From Escherichia coli (GTDB taxonomy: Bacteria; Pseudomonadota; Gammaproteobacteria; Enterobacterales; Enterobacteriaceae), in NCBI RefSeq assembly GCF_001677475.2, contig NZ_CP015229.1: a stretch of 64,000 nucleotides of DNA. The stretch is one strand, 5' to 3'. The notes under the pieces are model-generated. The model ran no database searches and was not told where the DNA came from. It worked only from the letters and a program-made list of their open reading frames with translations. The position numbers were made by a program, and so were the translations under genes. Each line of letters starts with the position of its first letter. Position 1 is the stretch's first letter. This document shows positions 13,672 to 48,173 of this stretch, piece after piece.

Positions 13672-13792
13672 GTGCGGCCTGAAAAACAGTGCTGTGCCCT
13701 TGTAACTCATCATAATAATTTACGGCGCAGCCAAGATTTCCCTGGTGTTGGCGCAGTATTCGCGCACCCCGGTCTAGCCGGGGTCATTTTTT
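13672..13792 (+). ncRNA. arcZ: ArcZ (SraH/RyhA) Hfq-dependent small RNA
   Basis: Sequence GTGCGGCCTGAAAAACAGTGCTGTGCCCTTGTAACTCATCATAATAATTTACGGCGCAGCCAAGATTTCCCTGGTGTTGGCGCAGTATTCGCGCACCCCGGTCTAGCCGGGGTCATTTTTT recognised from memory as ArcZ; ends in a GC-rich hairpin plus T-run; convergent with arcB and overlaps its 3' end. Confidence 0.85.
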
Positions 13793-27151: not shown

Positions 27152-28642
27152 TTAACTTTTGGTTTTGACTAAATCGTTTTTGGCGCTGCCAAACGGCACG
27201 GCACCGCTGAATGGTTTACCGTCGATAGCGTCATGAGTACGCAACGCTTCCGGGCGCAACCAACGCTGAACACGAGAAGGCATATCCAGACCAATCAGCA
27301 GGATCACCACAAATGTCAGACTGAACGAGAGCGATGCCAGCGCCGTCCCCAGATCCAGACGTTGAGCGATCAACGCGCCGATGATTGGGGCCAGTGCGCC
27401 ACCCAATGCGCCAACGTTATAGGTAAAGCCCAGGCCCGCTGCACGCTGGTCGGTATCGAAATAACCGCCAATCAGTTTCGGTAAGATCCCGGCGATCCCT
27501 TGTCCAAGCATTTGCTGGAAGAACAGTAACAGACCGAGCACCCAGACGTTTGCGCCGCCAATCGCAAATACCGGAATAATCAGCAGCTGCGAGGCCAGCA
27601 GGCTACAAACGTACGCTTTGCGGGTTCCCAGCCAGTCACCGAGGAAGCCACCTACGCAGCATCCCACCGCCGCGCCAAAGCCACTAAAGAACAGCACATT
27701 GGCGACAGTATGCGGGTTATAAGCCAGATCGGTTTTCAGATACGTTGGCAGCAGCGCCTGAATCGGCCATGAGTAGAGGAAAGCAAACAACACGACCACC
27801 ATCAGCATTACGCCCGTTGGCCAGCGTTTGCCCGTACTTTGCACCATAAAGCTGATAAAGATTGCGGCGCATAACAGCCCAAGAACAGCGACGATCGCGG
27901 CATTTTGCAGGTTACCGGCGAAGCAAAACCACAGCGCAGTAGCCGCCGCCAGTGTCATTACGATATTGGCAATGCGATGTTCACCCCGGTAGAGAATATC
28001 TACCATCGTGCGTACTGGTGCTTTACCAGCATGTTTCTCTTTCCAGTCTTCCGCTTCCGGGATGTTTTTACGCAGCCAGAGAGCAAAGATGATTGGCAAA
28101 ATGCCGATAAAGAACAGCGCACGCCAGCCCCAGACCGGAACCACCAGGCTATAGACCTGAGCGGCAACGACGGCCCCCACAGAGAAGCCGGAAATCAGAA
28201 AACCACTGGCTTTATTACGCAGATGTTTTGGCCAGCTTTCAATGACATAGGTGGCGCTGGAACCGTATTCACCCGCCATCCCCATGCCGATGACCAGACG
28301 AGCGATAAACATGGTGATGTAGCCTGGCGCAAAGCCGCAGGCCAGCGTCCCGGCCGAGAAGAGAACGATGCTGGTGACCATTGCCAGACGACGCCCGTAG
28401 CGGTCACCCATAGCGCCGAGCATCAGGCCGCCGAACCAGCGAGAGATAAAGGCTGCGGAGATCAGACTTGCCGCCTGCACCGTCGTCAGCCCGAATTCAC
28501 CTTGTACTTCGGTGAGTACCAGGGCGATTAAAACGAAATCAAAACCGTCAAGCAGATATCCCAACCAGGCAGCGGAAAATGCCCGCCATTGTGCACGATT
28601 GAGATGGCGATACCACGGGATATTCTGGGTTGTAGTACTCAT
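27152..28642 (-). CDS. nanT: NanT, sialic acid MFS transporter
   Basis: ORF track 27152..28672(-) trimmed to [12 protein letters not shown]... (496 aa). Confidence 0.94.
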
Positions 28643-28711
28643 TGTGAGTCTCCCGCGGTGGGCGATGCCCACACGCTTTGGTATGAAAATTGTAGGGTAC
28701 AGATGCGTTTA

Positions 28712-28746
28712 TTTCCCCTCACCCGGTAGGGGCGAGCGAGGGGAAA
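28712..28746. repeat. Imperfect palindromic intergenic repeat (ttcccctcaccc...ggggcgagcgagggga), copy 1 (approximate coordinates)
   Basis: Read directly from the nanT-nanA spacer; a closely related copy lies at about 46561. Confidence 0.5.
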
Positions 28747-28750
28747 CAAC

Positions 28751-29644
28751 TCACCCGCGCTGTTGCATCAACTGCTGGGCCAGCGCCTTCAGTTCTGGCA
28801 GATATTTTTCATCTACCGGTCCAAACGGTTTGCGGCACAGCGGCACAGAAACGACATCCATATAATGGAGGACAGTTTTCAGGCCGCGAAATACGCCCGT
28901 TTTGATCAGTAAATCAATGACTTTATTGCACTCAGTTTGCAGTTTCTGCGCGGTCTGGATATCGCCTTCTTTCAGCGCCTTAACAATGCCCTGATAACGC
29001 CAGCCCATGATGTTGTAGGTACTACCGATACCACCATCAGCGCCCGCCAGAAGACCAGAGGCGAAGATTTCGTCGTAACCGTTATAGAGCACCAGATCAG
29101 GATGTTCACGACGGATCTGTTCCATCTGATAGAGATCGCCAGAAGTCTGTTTCAGCGCACCGACGCCAGGCAACGTAACAAGTGTGTTGATCTGATCCAG
29201 GGTCAGTTTTACCCCACTCAGGGCTGGAATGTTGTACACCACCATCGGCAACCCATCCGCTGAATCAATAATTGCCCGATAGTGATCGCAGTGTTCTTCA
29301 AAGCTGAAAGGATAGTAGAACGGCGTAACGGCAGAGACGGCATCGAAGCCATAACGTTTAGCCGATGCCGCAAGTTGTTGGCTTTCAGCAGTGCTGACGC
29401 AACCTACGTGAGCGATGAGTTTAATCTTGCCTTTCGCCTCTTCGGCGACGATTTCCAGTACCTGTTCACGCTCGGAAAGGCTTTGTACAAAGGCTTCGCC
29501 GGTAGAACCACCCACGTATAAACCGTCGATGCCCTGCTGAATATTGAACTGAACCAGGCGACGCAGACTCGCTTTATCCAGTGCTTGTTGTTGATCAAAA
29601 GGAGTCAGGAGTGCGGCCATTACGCCACGTAAATTCGTTGCCAT
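28751..29644 (-). CDS. nanA: NanA, N-acetylneuraminate lyase
   Basis: ORF track 28751..29644(-), 297 aa; DHDPS/NAL family. Confidence 0.95.
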
Positions 29645-36811: not shown

Positions 36812-38179
36812 ATGAAAAAACAAACCCAGCTGTTGAGTGCATTAGCGTTAAGTGTCGGGTTAACTCTCTCGGCGTCTTTTCAGGCCGTTGCGTCGATTCC
36901 AGGCCAGGTTGCCGATCAGGCCCCTCTCCCCAGTCTGGCCCCAATGCTGGAAAAAGTGCTTCCGGCAGTGGTGAGCGTACGGGTGGAAGGAACGGCCAGT
37001 CAGGGACAGAAAATCCCGGAAGAATTCAAAAAGTTTTTTGGTGATGATTTACCGGATCAACCTGCACAACCCTTCGAAGGTTTAGGCTCCGGTGTCATCA
37101 TCAACGCCAGTAAAGGCTATGTGCTGACTAACAACCATGTGATTAATCAGGCACAGAAAATCAGTATTCAGCTCAATGATGGGCGCGAGTTTGATGCAAA
37201 ACTGATTGGTAGCGATGACCAGAGCGATATCGCCCTGTTGCAAATTCAAAACCCGAGCAAATTAACGCAAATCGCTATTGCCGACTCCGATAAATTGCGC
37301 GTCGGTGATTTTGCCGTGGCGGTCGGTAACCCATTTGGCCTTGGGCAAACCGCCACCTCTGGCATTGTTTCCGCATTAGGCCGCAGTGGGTTGAATCTTG
37401 AAGGTCTGGAAAACTTTATCCAGACAGATGCTTCCATTAACCGCGGTAACTCCGGCGGTGCACTGTTAAACCTTAACGGTGAGTTAATTGGCATCAACAC
37501 GGCAATCCTTGCGCCTGGCGGCGGGAGCGTCGGGATTGGATTTGCCATCCCCAGTAATATGGCGCGAACACTGGCGCAGCAGCTTATCGACTTTGGTGAA
37601 ATCAAACGCGGTCTGTTAGGCATCAAAGGCACCGAGATGAGTGCCGATATCGCCAAAGCCTTCAACCTTGACGTGCAGCGTGGCGCGTTTGTCAGCGAAG
37701 TGTTGCCAGGTTCTGGCTCGGCGAAAGCGGGCGTCAAAGCGGGCGATATTATTACCAGCCTCAACGGCAAACCGCTGAATAGCTTTGCTGAGTTGCGCTC
37801 TCGTATCGCGACCACCGAGCCGGGCACGAAAGTGAAGCTTGGCCTGCTGCGTAACGGCAAACCACTGGAAGTAGAAGTGACGCTCGATACCAGCACCTCT
37901 TCGTCGGCCAGCGCTGAAATGATCACGCCAGCGCTTGAAGGTGCAACGTTGAGCGATGGTCAGCTAAAAGATGGCGGCAAAGGTATTAAGATCGATGAGG
38001 TTGTCAAAGGAAGCCCAGCTGCTCAGGCTGGCTTGCAAAAAGACGATGTGATCATTGGCGTCAACCGCGATCGGGTGAACTCGATTGCTGAAATGCGTAA
38101 AGTGCTGGCGGCAAAACCGGCCATCATCGCCCTGCAAATTGTACGCGGCAATGAAAGCATCTATCTGCTGATGCGTTAA
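36812..38179 (+). CDS. degQ: DegQ, periplasmic serine endoprotease (HtrA family, two PDZ domains)
   Basis: ORF track 36770..38179(+) trimmed to MKKQTQLLSALALS... (455 aa); GNSGGAL active-site motif. Confidence 0.94.
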   Translation: MKKQTQLLSALALSVGLTLSASFQAVASIPGQVADQAPLPSLAPMLEKVLPAVVSVRVEGTASQGQKIPEEFKKFFGDDLPDQPAQPFEGLGSGVIINASKGYVLTNNHVINQAQKISIQLNDGREFDAKLIGSDDQSDIALLQIQNPSKLTQIAIADSDKLRVGDFAVAVGNPFGLGQTATSGIVSALGRSGLNLEGLENFIQTDASINRGNSGGALLNLNGELIGINTAILAPGGGSVGIGFAIPSNMARTLAQQLIDFGEIKRGLLGIKGTEMSADIAKAFNLDVQRGAFVSEVLPGSGSAKAGVKAGDIITSLNGKPLNSFAELRSRIATTEPGTKVKLGLLRNGKPLEVEVTLDTSTSSSASAEMITPALEGATLSDGQLKDGGKGIKIDEVVKGSPAAQAGLQKDDVIIGVNRDRVNSIAEMRKVLAAKPAIIALQIVRGNESIYLLMR

Positions 38180-45588: not shown

Positions 45589-46518
45589 ATGGAACGACTA
45601 AAACGCATGTCGGTGTTTGCCAAAGTAGTTGAATTTGGCTCTTTTACCGCCGCCGCCAGACAGTTACAGATGAGCGTTTCGTCCATCAGTCAGACGGTGT
45701 CAAAACTGGAAGATGAGTTGCAGGTAAAGCTGTTAAACCGTAGCACACGCAGCATTGGCCTGACCGAAGCCGGTAGAATTTACTACCAGGGCTGCCGTCG
45801 GATGCTTCATGAAGTGCAGGATGTTCATGAGCAACTGTATGCCTTCAATAACACCCCCATCGGGACGCTACGCATTGGCTGTTCTTCAACTATGGCACAA
45901 AATGTTCTCGCCGGGCTGACAGCCAAAATGCTGAAAGAATACCCAGGTTTGAGCGTCAATCTGGTTACCGGAATTCCTGCCCCCGACCTGATTGCCGACG
46001 GTCTGGATGTGGTGATCCGCGTCGGCGCGTTGCAGGATTCCAGCCTGTTTTCCCGCCGTCTTGGCGCGATGCCAATGGTGGTCTGCGCCGCGAAAAGCTA
46101 TCTCACACAATACGGCATACCGGAAAAACCCGCCGATTTAAGTAGTCATTCATGGCTTGAATACAGCGTACGACCCGACAATGAATTTGAACTGATCGCA
46201 CCGGAAGGGATCTCGACTCGCCTGATCCCGCAAGGGAGATTTGTGACTAATGATCCGATGACGCTGGTGCGCTGGCTAACGGCGGGCGCCGGGATCGCCT
46301 ACGTGCCGCTGATGTGGGTGATCAACGAGATCAATCGCGGGGAGCTGGAGATCCTGCTGCCACGTTACCAGTCAGATCCACGCCCGGTTTATGCGTTATA
46401 TACCGAAAAAGATAAGCTGCCGCTGAAGGTACAAGTCGTGATCAACTCGCTAACGGATTATTTTGTTGAGGTCGGTAAATTGTTTCAGGAGATGCACGGG
46501 CGCGGGAAAGAGAAGTAA
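45589..46518 (+). CDS. aaeR: AaeR, LysR-family activator of aaeXAB
   Basis: ORF track 45589..46518(+), 309 aa; LysR HTH; divergent from aaeX. Confidence 0.93.
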   Translation: MERLKRMSVFAKVVEFGSFTAAARQLQMSVSSISQTVSKLEDELQVKLLNRSTRSIGLTEAGRIYYQGCRRMLHEVQDVHEQLYAFNNTPIGTLRIGCSSTMAQNVLAGLTAKMLKEYPGLSVNLVTGIPAPDLIADGLDVVIRVGALQDSSLFSRRLGAMPMVVCAAKSYLTQYGIPEKPADLSSHSWLEYSVRPDNEFELIAPEGISTRLIPQGRFVTNDPMTLVRWLTAGAGIAYVPLMWVINEINRGELEILLPRYQSDPRPVYALYTEKDKLPLKVQVVINSLTDYFVEVGKLFQEMHGRGKEK

Positions 46519-46560
46519 TTCATATTGTACTGTTACGTTGTACAAACCTGTGCCAACGGG

Positions 46561-46594
46561 TTCCCCTCACCCTAACCCCAGAGGGGCGAGGGGA
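46561..46594. repeat. Imperfect palindromic intergenic repeat (ttcccctcaccc...ggggcgagggga), copy 2
   Basis: Read directly from the aaeR-tldD spacer; related to the element at about 28712. Confidence 0.5.
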
Positions 46595-46645
46595 CCGTTC
46601 GTGCACGTAGAAGGATTAATTATCCTTCTGAAAATACTGAAATTA

Positions 46646-48106
<1,461 letters not shown>

Positions 48107-48135: not shown

Positions 48136-48173
48136 GCTGCCGGATGCAGCGTGAACGCCCTATCCGGCCTACG
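48136..48173. repeat. REP element between tldD and yhdP (approximate coordinates)
   Basis: gctgccggatgcagcgtgaacgccctatccggcctacg closely matches the E. coli REP consensus. Confidence 0.7.

Follow-up and report, generated by a model that had tools for sequence, protein, structure and literature searches.

The two GC-rich imperfect palindromes that lie in the nanA–nanT and aaeR–tldD spacers of the stretch of DNA analysed here (the window, 64,000 nucleotides) are decayed derivatives, and not intact members, of BoxC. The reading that we prefer, and to which we would give a probability of about 0.8, is that both sites are two-block BoxC derivatives which decayed by a slippage route, that the aaeR–tldD copy (site 2) is neutral, and that the nanA–nanT copy (site 1) is a remnant of the type-B subtype, whose most likely effect, put forward with much less confidence, would be to behave like a REP element in the nan mRNA. 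Site 2 is represented in the published catalogue by its K-12 ortholog, and site 1 is a remnant found throughout the genus that the catalogue does not list. Although real, the finding is an ordinary one, since BoxC is a known E. coli intergenic repeat, and its main value lies in correct annotation: both sites should be labelled as remnants of BoxC, and not as REPs, terminators or regulatory sites.

The window is a segment of an E. coli chromosome with around 98.2% identity to K-12 MG1655 at approximately 3.34–3.40 Mb. Both palindromes are present where the original prediction had put them and the spacers that it named are confirmed, each site being intergenic. Site 1 (28712–28746, TTTCCCCTCACCCGGTAGGGGCGAGCGAGGGGAAA) lies between the stop codon of nanA (N-acetylneuraminate lyase, 28751–29644, minus strand), at 28751–28753, and the ATG of nanT (sialic acid transporter, 27152–28642, minus strand), at 28642. 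Site 2 (46561–46596, TTCCCCTCACCCTAACCCCAGAGGGGCGAGGGGACC) is flanked by the convergent genes aaeR (45589–46518, plus strand) and tldD (46646–48091, minus strand), which end at 46518 and 46646 respectively. It had been claimed that the two palindromes share both arms and differ in the loop. The left arm, TCCCCTCACCC, does have the same letters at both sites, but the right arm, GGGGCGAGGGGA, is exact at site 2 only, being broken at site 1 by four extra bases (GGGGCGAG-CGAG-GGGA), and so the first part of the claim was a slight overstatement; the loop sequences do differ, but the apparent loop difference is the leftover of a lost middle block. A tandem duplication of CGAG was considered as the source of the longer right arm of site 1 and was dropped, as E. 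albertii reads TCACCCGC there.

PIT elements are reportedly the subject of work by Hoyne and Maher from 2000. BoxC, the PIT (potential intrastrand triplex) element and TMECO are one and the same repeat, described in the 1990s and rediscovered twice (PMC4666352). A survey gives BoxC as 56 bp in length with 32 copies, and the earlier literature that it cites includes Bergler 1992 and Bachellier 1999 (PMC2267715). It is short and non-coding, and enterobacteria related to E. coli have it as well. The full element opens with a C-rich block, after which come two G-rich blocks in tandem (PMC4666352), with the TMECO consensus CCCTCNCCC-N3-6-GGGNGAGGG-N3-GGGNGAGGG (Holder et al. 2015, PMC4666352); two subtypes are distinguished by the second loop, which is TTA in type A and CCG in type B, and 23 K-12 copies are given in Table 1 of the same paper (PMC4666352). 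Coordinates from that table were checked on NC_000913.3, where three were verified, and a comparison set of 14 K-12 BoxC copies with their flanks was assembled, of which 8 are type B. In the type-B copies the 5' flank is 'ttttcY', the linker is CCG, and the 3' side is A/T-rich and then reads CGC; the type-A copies have the flanks 'cgGTC' and 'aac'. The original prediction had proposed a genome-wide motif count and had supposed the palindromes to belong to a known class of small intergenic repeat, and the latter has been borne out: by BLAST the type-A consensus is present in 5,425 of 5,426 complete E. coli genomes, at a median of 19 places per genome (range 1–32), and the class is BoxC, the K-12 ortholog of site 2 being TMECO #14. 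The BoxC consensus was also found by BLAST at 365 places on E. coli plasmids, and TMECO #3 and #4 (K-12 282040–282200 and 289180–289340) are inside a region annotated as the cryptic prophage CP4-6; the motif has been described as having no association with mobile elements (PMC4666352).

The K-12 ortholog of site 2, TMECO #14, is a type-A element at 3390494–3390529 of NC_000913.3, 44 nt from aaeR and 53 nt from tldD, where it reads CCCTCGCCCCTTTGGGGTGAGGGTTAGGGTGAGGGG, exactly as in Table 1 of PMC4666352. With its flanks, the element in the window spans 46551–46602 on the minus strand and is the TMECO #14 allele minus 6 nt of the middle block. On that strand block 1 (46583–46593) reads CCCCTCGCCCC, the remnant of the middle block (46576–46579) is GGGG where the strain alignment gives GGGGTGAGGG in K-12, and the TTA linker with block 3 (46563–46575) reads TTAGGGTGAGGGG. 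The TTA linker, together with the 5' 'cgGTC' and 3' 'aac' flanks, makes the element type A. Laid side by side, K-12 has CCCCTCACCC-TAA-CCCTCACCCC-AAA-GGGGCGAGGGG and the window has CCCCTCACCC-TAA-CCCC-AGA-GGGGCGAGGGG, that is, a 6-nt TCACCC deletion plus one loop change. Site 2 is detected by the core TMECO profile (E 1.4e-5) and by the extended type-A profile that includes the flanks (E 1.4e-11), all E-values given here referring to the 64-kb window on both strands.

The three-block consensus itself has no match at site 1 or at site 2, although the K-12 ortholog of site 2 meets it exactly; site 1 is without the middle block and at site 2 this block is down to GGGG, and for this reason neither is filed as an intact member. 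What the window copies have in common with BoxC/PIT/TMECO elements are the blocks CCCTCGCCCC and GGGTGAGGGG, the linkers (TTA at site 2, CCG at site 1), the type-specific flanks and an intergenic location. They differ from them in that little or nothing of the middle G block is left, so that, judged by sequence, the third strand of the proposed triplex is gone, and site 1 differs further in being fixed across Escherichia, in contrast to the polymorphism of typical BoxC loci.

Site 2 is such a polymorphic locus. In 5,421 complete E. coli genomes the aaeR–tldD locus has at least three length alleles, with spans of 167, 161, 160 and 155 nt. The allele frequencies, which are rough and were derived from identity bands and from 40 records sampled at even spacing, are around 52% for the 161-nt form (the window type), around 37% for the 167-nt form (the full K-12 type) and around 11% for the 155-nt form, in which a further 6 nt are gone. 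In NZ_LT903847, an engineered derivative of EPEC E2348/69, the IS4-like element ISEc13 lies inside the aaeR–tldD BoxC (around window 46561–46576), and only the right part of BoxC adjoins tldD after the insertion (around 540–600 of the retrieved locus, L006). This length variability matches that published for TMECOs, including the mutated or partly deleted, 'degenerated' copies of other strains (Holder et al. 2015, PMC4666352). In the same work a 'palindrome effect' is described, in which partial loss of paired TMECO sites leaves a stable stem-loop (Holder et al. 2015, PMC4666352). The window copies, along with the two-block allele at lldD–trmL described below, are cases of this kind, with the difference that the nanA–nanT copy is unlisted in Holder et al. 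2015. The RNA fold of site 2 is moderate on both strands (z around -2.5). Given that its neighbours are convergent, that it varies freely among strains and that published tests of full PIT elements were null, site 2 is most likely functionally neutral DNA. Adjoining it, at 46611–46631 and between the aaeR and tldD stops, is an AT-rich hairpin, AGAAGGAT-TAAT-TATCCTTCT, without a T tract on either side.

Blocks 2 and 3 of BoxC are near-identical direct repeats with a period of 12 nt, and we infer that slipped-strand deletion between them would remove the middle block and leave a Watson-Crick hairpin made up of block 1 and block 3. A loss of 12 nt would then arise as in TMECO #18, and a loss of 6 nt, between shorter runs of G or C, as in TMECO #14. 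TMECO #18, at lldD–trmL, supplies a natural example of the former: an exact 12-nt loss of the middle block gives TTTTCCCCTCACCCCGGAGGGGCGAGGGAGAAAA, and this two-block allele is carried by approximately 1,499 genomes and the full allele by approximately 1,197. The identification of these particular 6-nt and 12-nt losses from the middle block, and the estimates of how often they occur in around 5,400 genomes, come from the present analysis; the aaeR–tldD and lldD–trmL loci are clean natural cases of the loss of the BoxC middle block in steps of 6 or 12 nt.

A different account, put forward for TMECO, is that the sites act at the level of DNA, forming an intrastrand triplex (H-DNA) that pauses polymerase and makes the genome locally unstable. 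Full TMECO oligonucleotides do form a triplex in vitro, and hypervariability has been reported for TMECO loci (Holder et al. 2015, PMC4666352); site 2 is hypervariable too. Both window copies, however, are without the middle block, or most of it, so that a three-strand fold would hold four triads at most, and site 1 is not variable; in vivo footprinting gave no support for stable triplexes (PMC4666352). Furthermore, direct-repeat slippage by itself explains the 6-nt and 12-nt deletions, and a triplex is therefore not needed. We give the triplex account almost no credence for these two sites, and slippage between the tandem G blocks helps to explain the reported hypervariability of BoxC without triplex DNA.

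The case for site 1 is made by its flanks and linker, its profile scores, the two-block precedent of TMECO #18 and the orthologous spacers of other species. The hairpin as a whole occupies 28709–28749 on the minus strand, the extended profile match running from 28704 to 28749, and in the nan mRNA it reads UUGUUUCCCCUCGCUCG-CCCCUAC-CGGGUGAGGGGAAAUAA. Its 5' arm (28733–28749, minus strand) is a T-run followed by a C-rich block (TTGTTTCCCCTCGCTCG), which by comparison with the 8 K-12 type-B copies corresponds to the type-B 5' flank 'ttttcY' and block 1. The 3' arm (28709–28725, minus strand), CGGGTGAGGGGAAATAA, is made up of the type-B CCG linker, G-block 3 and the A-run flank; its core, CGGGTGAGGGGAAA, is invariant in 8 Escherichia sequences, and it aligns with CCGGGGTGAGGGG...AAACGCATC of a full type-B BoxC from Pseudocitrobacter faecalis. 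Taken together the minus strand reads gtttc-CCCTCGCTCGCCCC-TA-CCG-GGTGAGGGG-AAATAAACGC, with the 3' flank 'AAAT..CGC', as in type B.

The profile scores agree with this. On the 36-nt core TMECO profile, which detects site 2, site 1 is not detected (E 1.2). On the K-12 type-B profile with flanks, which was built from the 8 type-B copies and has no sequence from the nanA–nanT locus, it reaches E 0.0046, and when the middle block is deleted from that profile in silico it becomes the best match in the window, nearly full length, at E 1.9e-4. This deleted type-B version scores better at site 1 than the type-A version does, and the Escherichia orthologs of site 1 score 14.7–19 bits. When site 1 is set against the natural two-block form of TMECO #18, 26 of 29 positions agree. 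Judged on these sequence comparisons, site 1 is an old, unlisted type-B BoxC remnant that is fixed across the genus Escherichia: the two-block element is kept in 6 Escherichia lineages, and the 35-mer is found at full length in 5,412 of 5,426 E. coli genomes, with at least 99% identity in 5,397. It is absent from the 23 K-12 copies listed in PMC4666352; nanA and nanT are not mentioned in the supplements of Holder 2015 or RepRanger 2025, and literature searches for a nanA–nanT stem-loop and for later TMECO work found nothing. The K-12 RefSeq record carries no repeat features and is thus silent on whether site 1 was ever annotated.

If the sites were merely unrelated GC-rich palindromes, alike by chance, little of this would be expected. 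In keeping with chance, the window has no excess of short GC-rich motifs when one mismatch is allowed (10 against 5.8 expected), but the combined pattern CCCCTCACCC-N0-25-GGGGCGAGGGG had no match in 100 shuffles of the window, sites 1 and 2 are the top two profile matches in it, and site 2 is orthologous to a catalogued member of the family. Chance similarity is refuted by the match to BoxC, and its probability is negligible. The block CCCTCNCCC occurs 4 times in the window against 1.17 expected, three of the four occurrences being at sites 1 and 2. The sequence CCCTCTCCC at 36922–36930, which by the K-12 offset is inside degQ and has no partner block, was treated as chance.

The nanA–nanT spacers of 80 species were compared. 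Pseudocitrobacter faecalis and Enterobacter sp. kpr-6 each have an inverted pair of full BoxCs in this spacer, beside a nanT leader that they have in common with Escherichia. In each pair the nanT-proximal copy can be aligned to the Escherichia element. That of P. faecalis has the CCG linker and is type B, and its alignment runs on into the downstream AAACGCATC flank; that of kpr-6 is type-B-like. In Kluyvera the BoxC of the spacer is truncated in the third block instead. Site 1 may have arisen by loss of block 2 from a type-B copy, or an inverted pair of BoxCs may have had its outer blocks fused; the latter, modelled as fusion of an inverted A/B pair after the 'palindrome effect', scores almost as well as the type-B deletion, and better for one species. 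The spacer of P. vendiensis, at 403 nt, holds around five BoxC copies (2395–2797 of the retrieved locus, L017). There a composite unit of 73 nt, which joins BoxC to a second small palindrome (ACCGC...GCGGT), is repeated 3.4 times in tandem, an arrangement that suggests amplification of BoxC within a larger unit.

These spacers also bear upon the view that site 1 is an RNA structure peculiar to nan, evolved independently for stability, processing or attenuation, and that it resembles BoxC only because both are GC-rich hairpins. The failure of site 1 to match the three-block consensus and its core-profile E-value of 1.2 fit that view, as do its near invariance in 5,412 genomes, where true BoxC loci are polymorphic, and the unrelated hairpins found in the same slot of other genera. 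Against it stand the type-B-specific flanks and CCG linker, the E-value of 1.9e-4 on a profile drawn solely from other loci, the likeness to the TMECO #18 allele, and the spacers of Pseudocitrobacter and kpr-6, which share the nanT leader and hold full BoxCs in the same place. An independent origin is therefore improbable, although less so than chance similarity, and descent from a type-B BoxC is the better explanation of site 1.

On the nan mRNA strand site 1 forms an uninterrupted stem of 17 bp with a 7-nt loop (-26.8 kcal/mol, z -5.46), and none of 200 shuffles was as stable. The stem begins 1 nt after the UGA of nanA, and the nanT ATG is 66 nt downstream of the hairpin. The opposite strand folds less well (-18.3 kcal/mol, z -1.8), and the same asymmetry is seen when the strands are folded as DNA. 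The stronger fold of the mRNA strand comes from G-T mismatches that are common to many BoxC copies, and it is thus not specific to nan. The 14 core pairs are paired in all 8 Escherichia sequences. Four pairs vary, by one-sided transitions only, and the 5' arm differs between species solely by such changes, all of which keep G-U or A-U pairing on the mRNA strand. There was no compensatory covariation in the core stem among these 8 closely related sequences (371 of 500 shuffles score as high). Rfam gave no family at the gathering threshold for either site, the matches in E-value mode being at most 18.5 bits against thresholds of 33–80 bits; the sole family at the gathering threshold in the window is the ArcZ sRNA gene (13672–13779).

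Stable hairpins just past stop codons, one of them between convergent genes, have the look of intrinsic terminators, and it could be proposed that site 1 terminates or attenuates transcription after nanA and that site 2 is a bidirectional terminator for aaeR and tldD. A consensus terminator scan, however, reports neither site, and there is no U/T tract on either strand, the tails after the hairpin being AAAUAAACG and CAACUCACC at site 1 and CCGUUCGU and AACCCGUU at site 2. In published tests, full PIT elements acted neither as promoters nor as terminators and left RNA polymerase unaffected. Moreover, nanT belongs to the nanATEK operon, whose nanA promoter drives its expression. Termination is thus very unlikely at both sites. 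Neither site was reported by a promoter scan, and site 1 is neither a terminator nor a promoter; having only two blocks, it would also be unable to form the intrastrand triplex of a full BoxC.

The original prediction had set both palindromes apart from the classic REPs at 18–52 and 48136–48173. This holds: those REPs are present and are clearly different in sequence (the one at 48140–48173 is close to the canonical GCCGGATGCGGCGTGAACGCCTTATCCGGCCTAC), and the motifs of the REP consensus GCCGGATGCGGCGTGAACGCCTTATCCGGCCTAC (GCCGGATG...TATCCGGCCTAC) are found in neither site. The BoxC sites are like REP/BIME elements in being GC-rich intergenic palindromes that are co-transcribed with flanking genes, and unlike them in sequence, so that any function proposed for site 1 is borrowed from REP biology. 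REP hairpins can act as a barrier to RNases, as attenuators, or to stall ribosomes if within 15 nt of a stop codon (summarised in PMC12306157).

Site 1 is co-transcribed in the nanATEK mRNA and folds just after the nanA stop codon. By analogy with REPs, the hairpin would block 3'-to-5' exonucleases there, so that the nanA segment outlives that of nanT; as the stop is within 15 nt of it, it may also hold up ribosomes as they terminate. Its fixation, its position against the stop codon and the near-constant presence of a GC-rich hairpin in the same slot of other genera lend support to such a REP-like role, which is the best supported idea for site 1. Even so, we put forward protection of nanA mRNA as a tentative suggestion, and rather more likely wrong than right. 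The broader proposal that site 1 affects nanA–nanT transcript processing is plausible, as the hairpin is strong and specific to the mRNA sense, abuts the nanA stop, and has some hairpin as its counterpart in most enterobacterial nanA–nanT spacers. Its genus-wide fixation, and its place against a stop codon inside an operon, make the nanA–nanT copy unusual and a handy test case for BoxC function at the RNA level.

Among the 80 spacers, 43 are REP-like by a crude motif count and around 12 are of BoxC type by eye, an automatic rule having flagged only 4 of the latter. REPs fill the slot in Citrobacter, Salmonella, Enterobacter and Lelliottia; most of the remaining spacers have other, unrelated GC hairpins near the nanA stop, and a few (Trabulsiella, Buttiauxella) have none near it. 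One reading, more doubtful still than the REP-like role, is that the position after the nanA stop is a selected 'hairpin slot' which GC-rich repeats specific to each lineage have filled independently: BoxC in Escherichia, Pseudocitrobacter and Kluyvera, REP in Citrobacter, Salmonella and Enterobacter, and other hairpins elsewhere. If this were true, the Escherichia BoxC remnant would be a domesticated repeat that sets the nanA:nanT ratio, either by protecting the mRNA end or by stalling ribosomes at the stop, and a member of a repeat family without a known function would have acquired a concrete one.

Some minor observations were made around the nanA–nanT spacer. The stretch 28600–28800 of the window has an exact match in none of the complete E. 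coli genomes, the best among 5,408 being 99.5%, so that the source strain lies outside that collection or the window carries a private variant. Over 28640–28770 the sole difference from 3 aligned strains is at 28762, where the window has G in place of C; this changes codon 294 of nanA from GAG to CAG. Just 5' of the nanT Shine-Dalgarno sequence (28649–28654) is a small hairpin, GUGGGC-AUC-GCCCAC (28658–28672, minus strand), which many genera have kept, with compensatory changes as seen, for example, in Enterobacter sp. kpr-6 (AUGGGGCACCCCCAU), in Raoultella (GUGGGUCUGACCCAU) and in Leclercia and Silvania (AUGGGUUUACCCAU), and which is absent from leaders of the Citrobacter and Salmonella types. 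It may control the translation of nanT or stabilise a 5' end.
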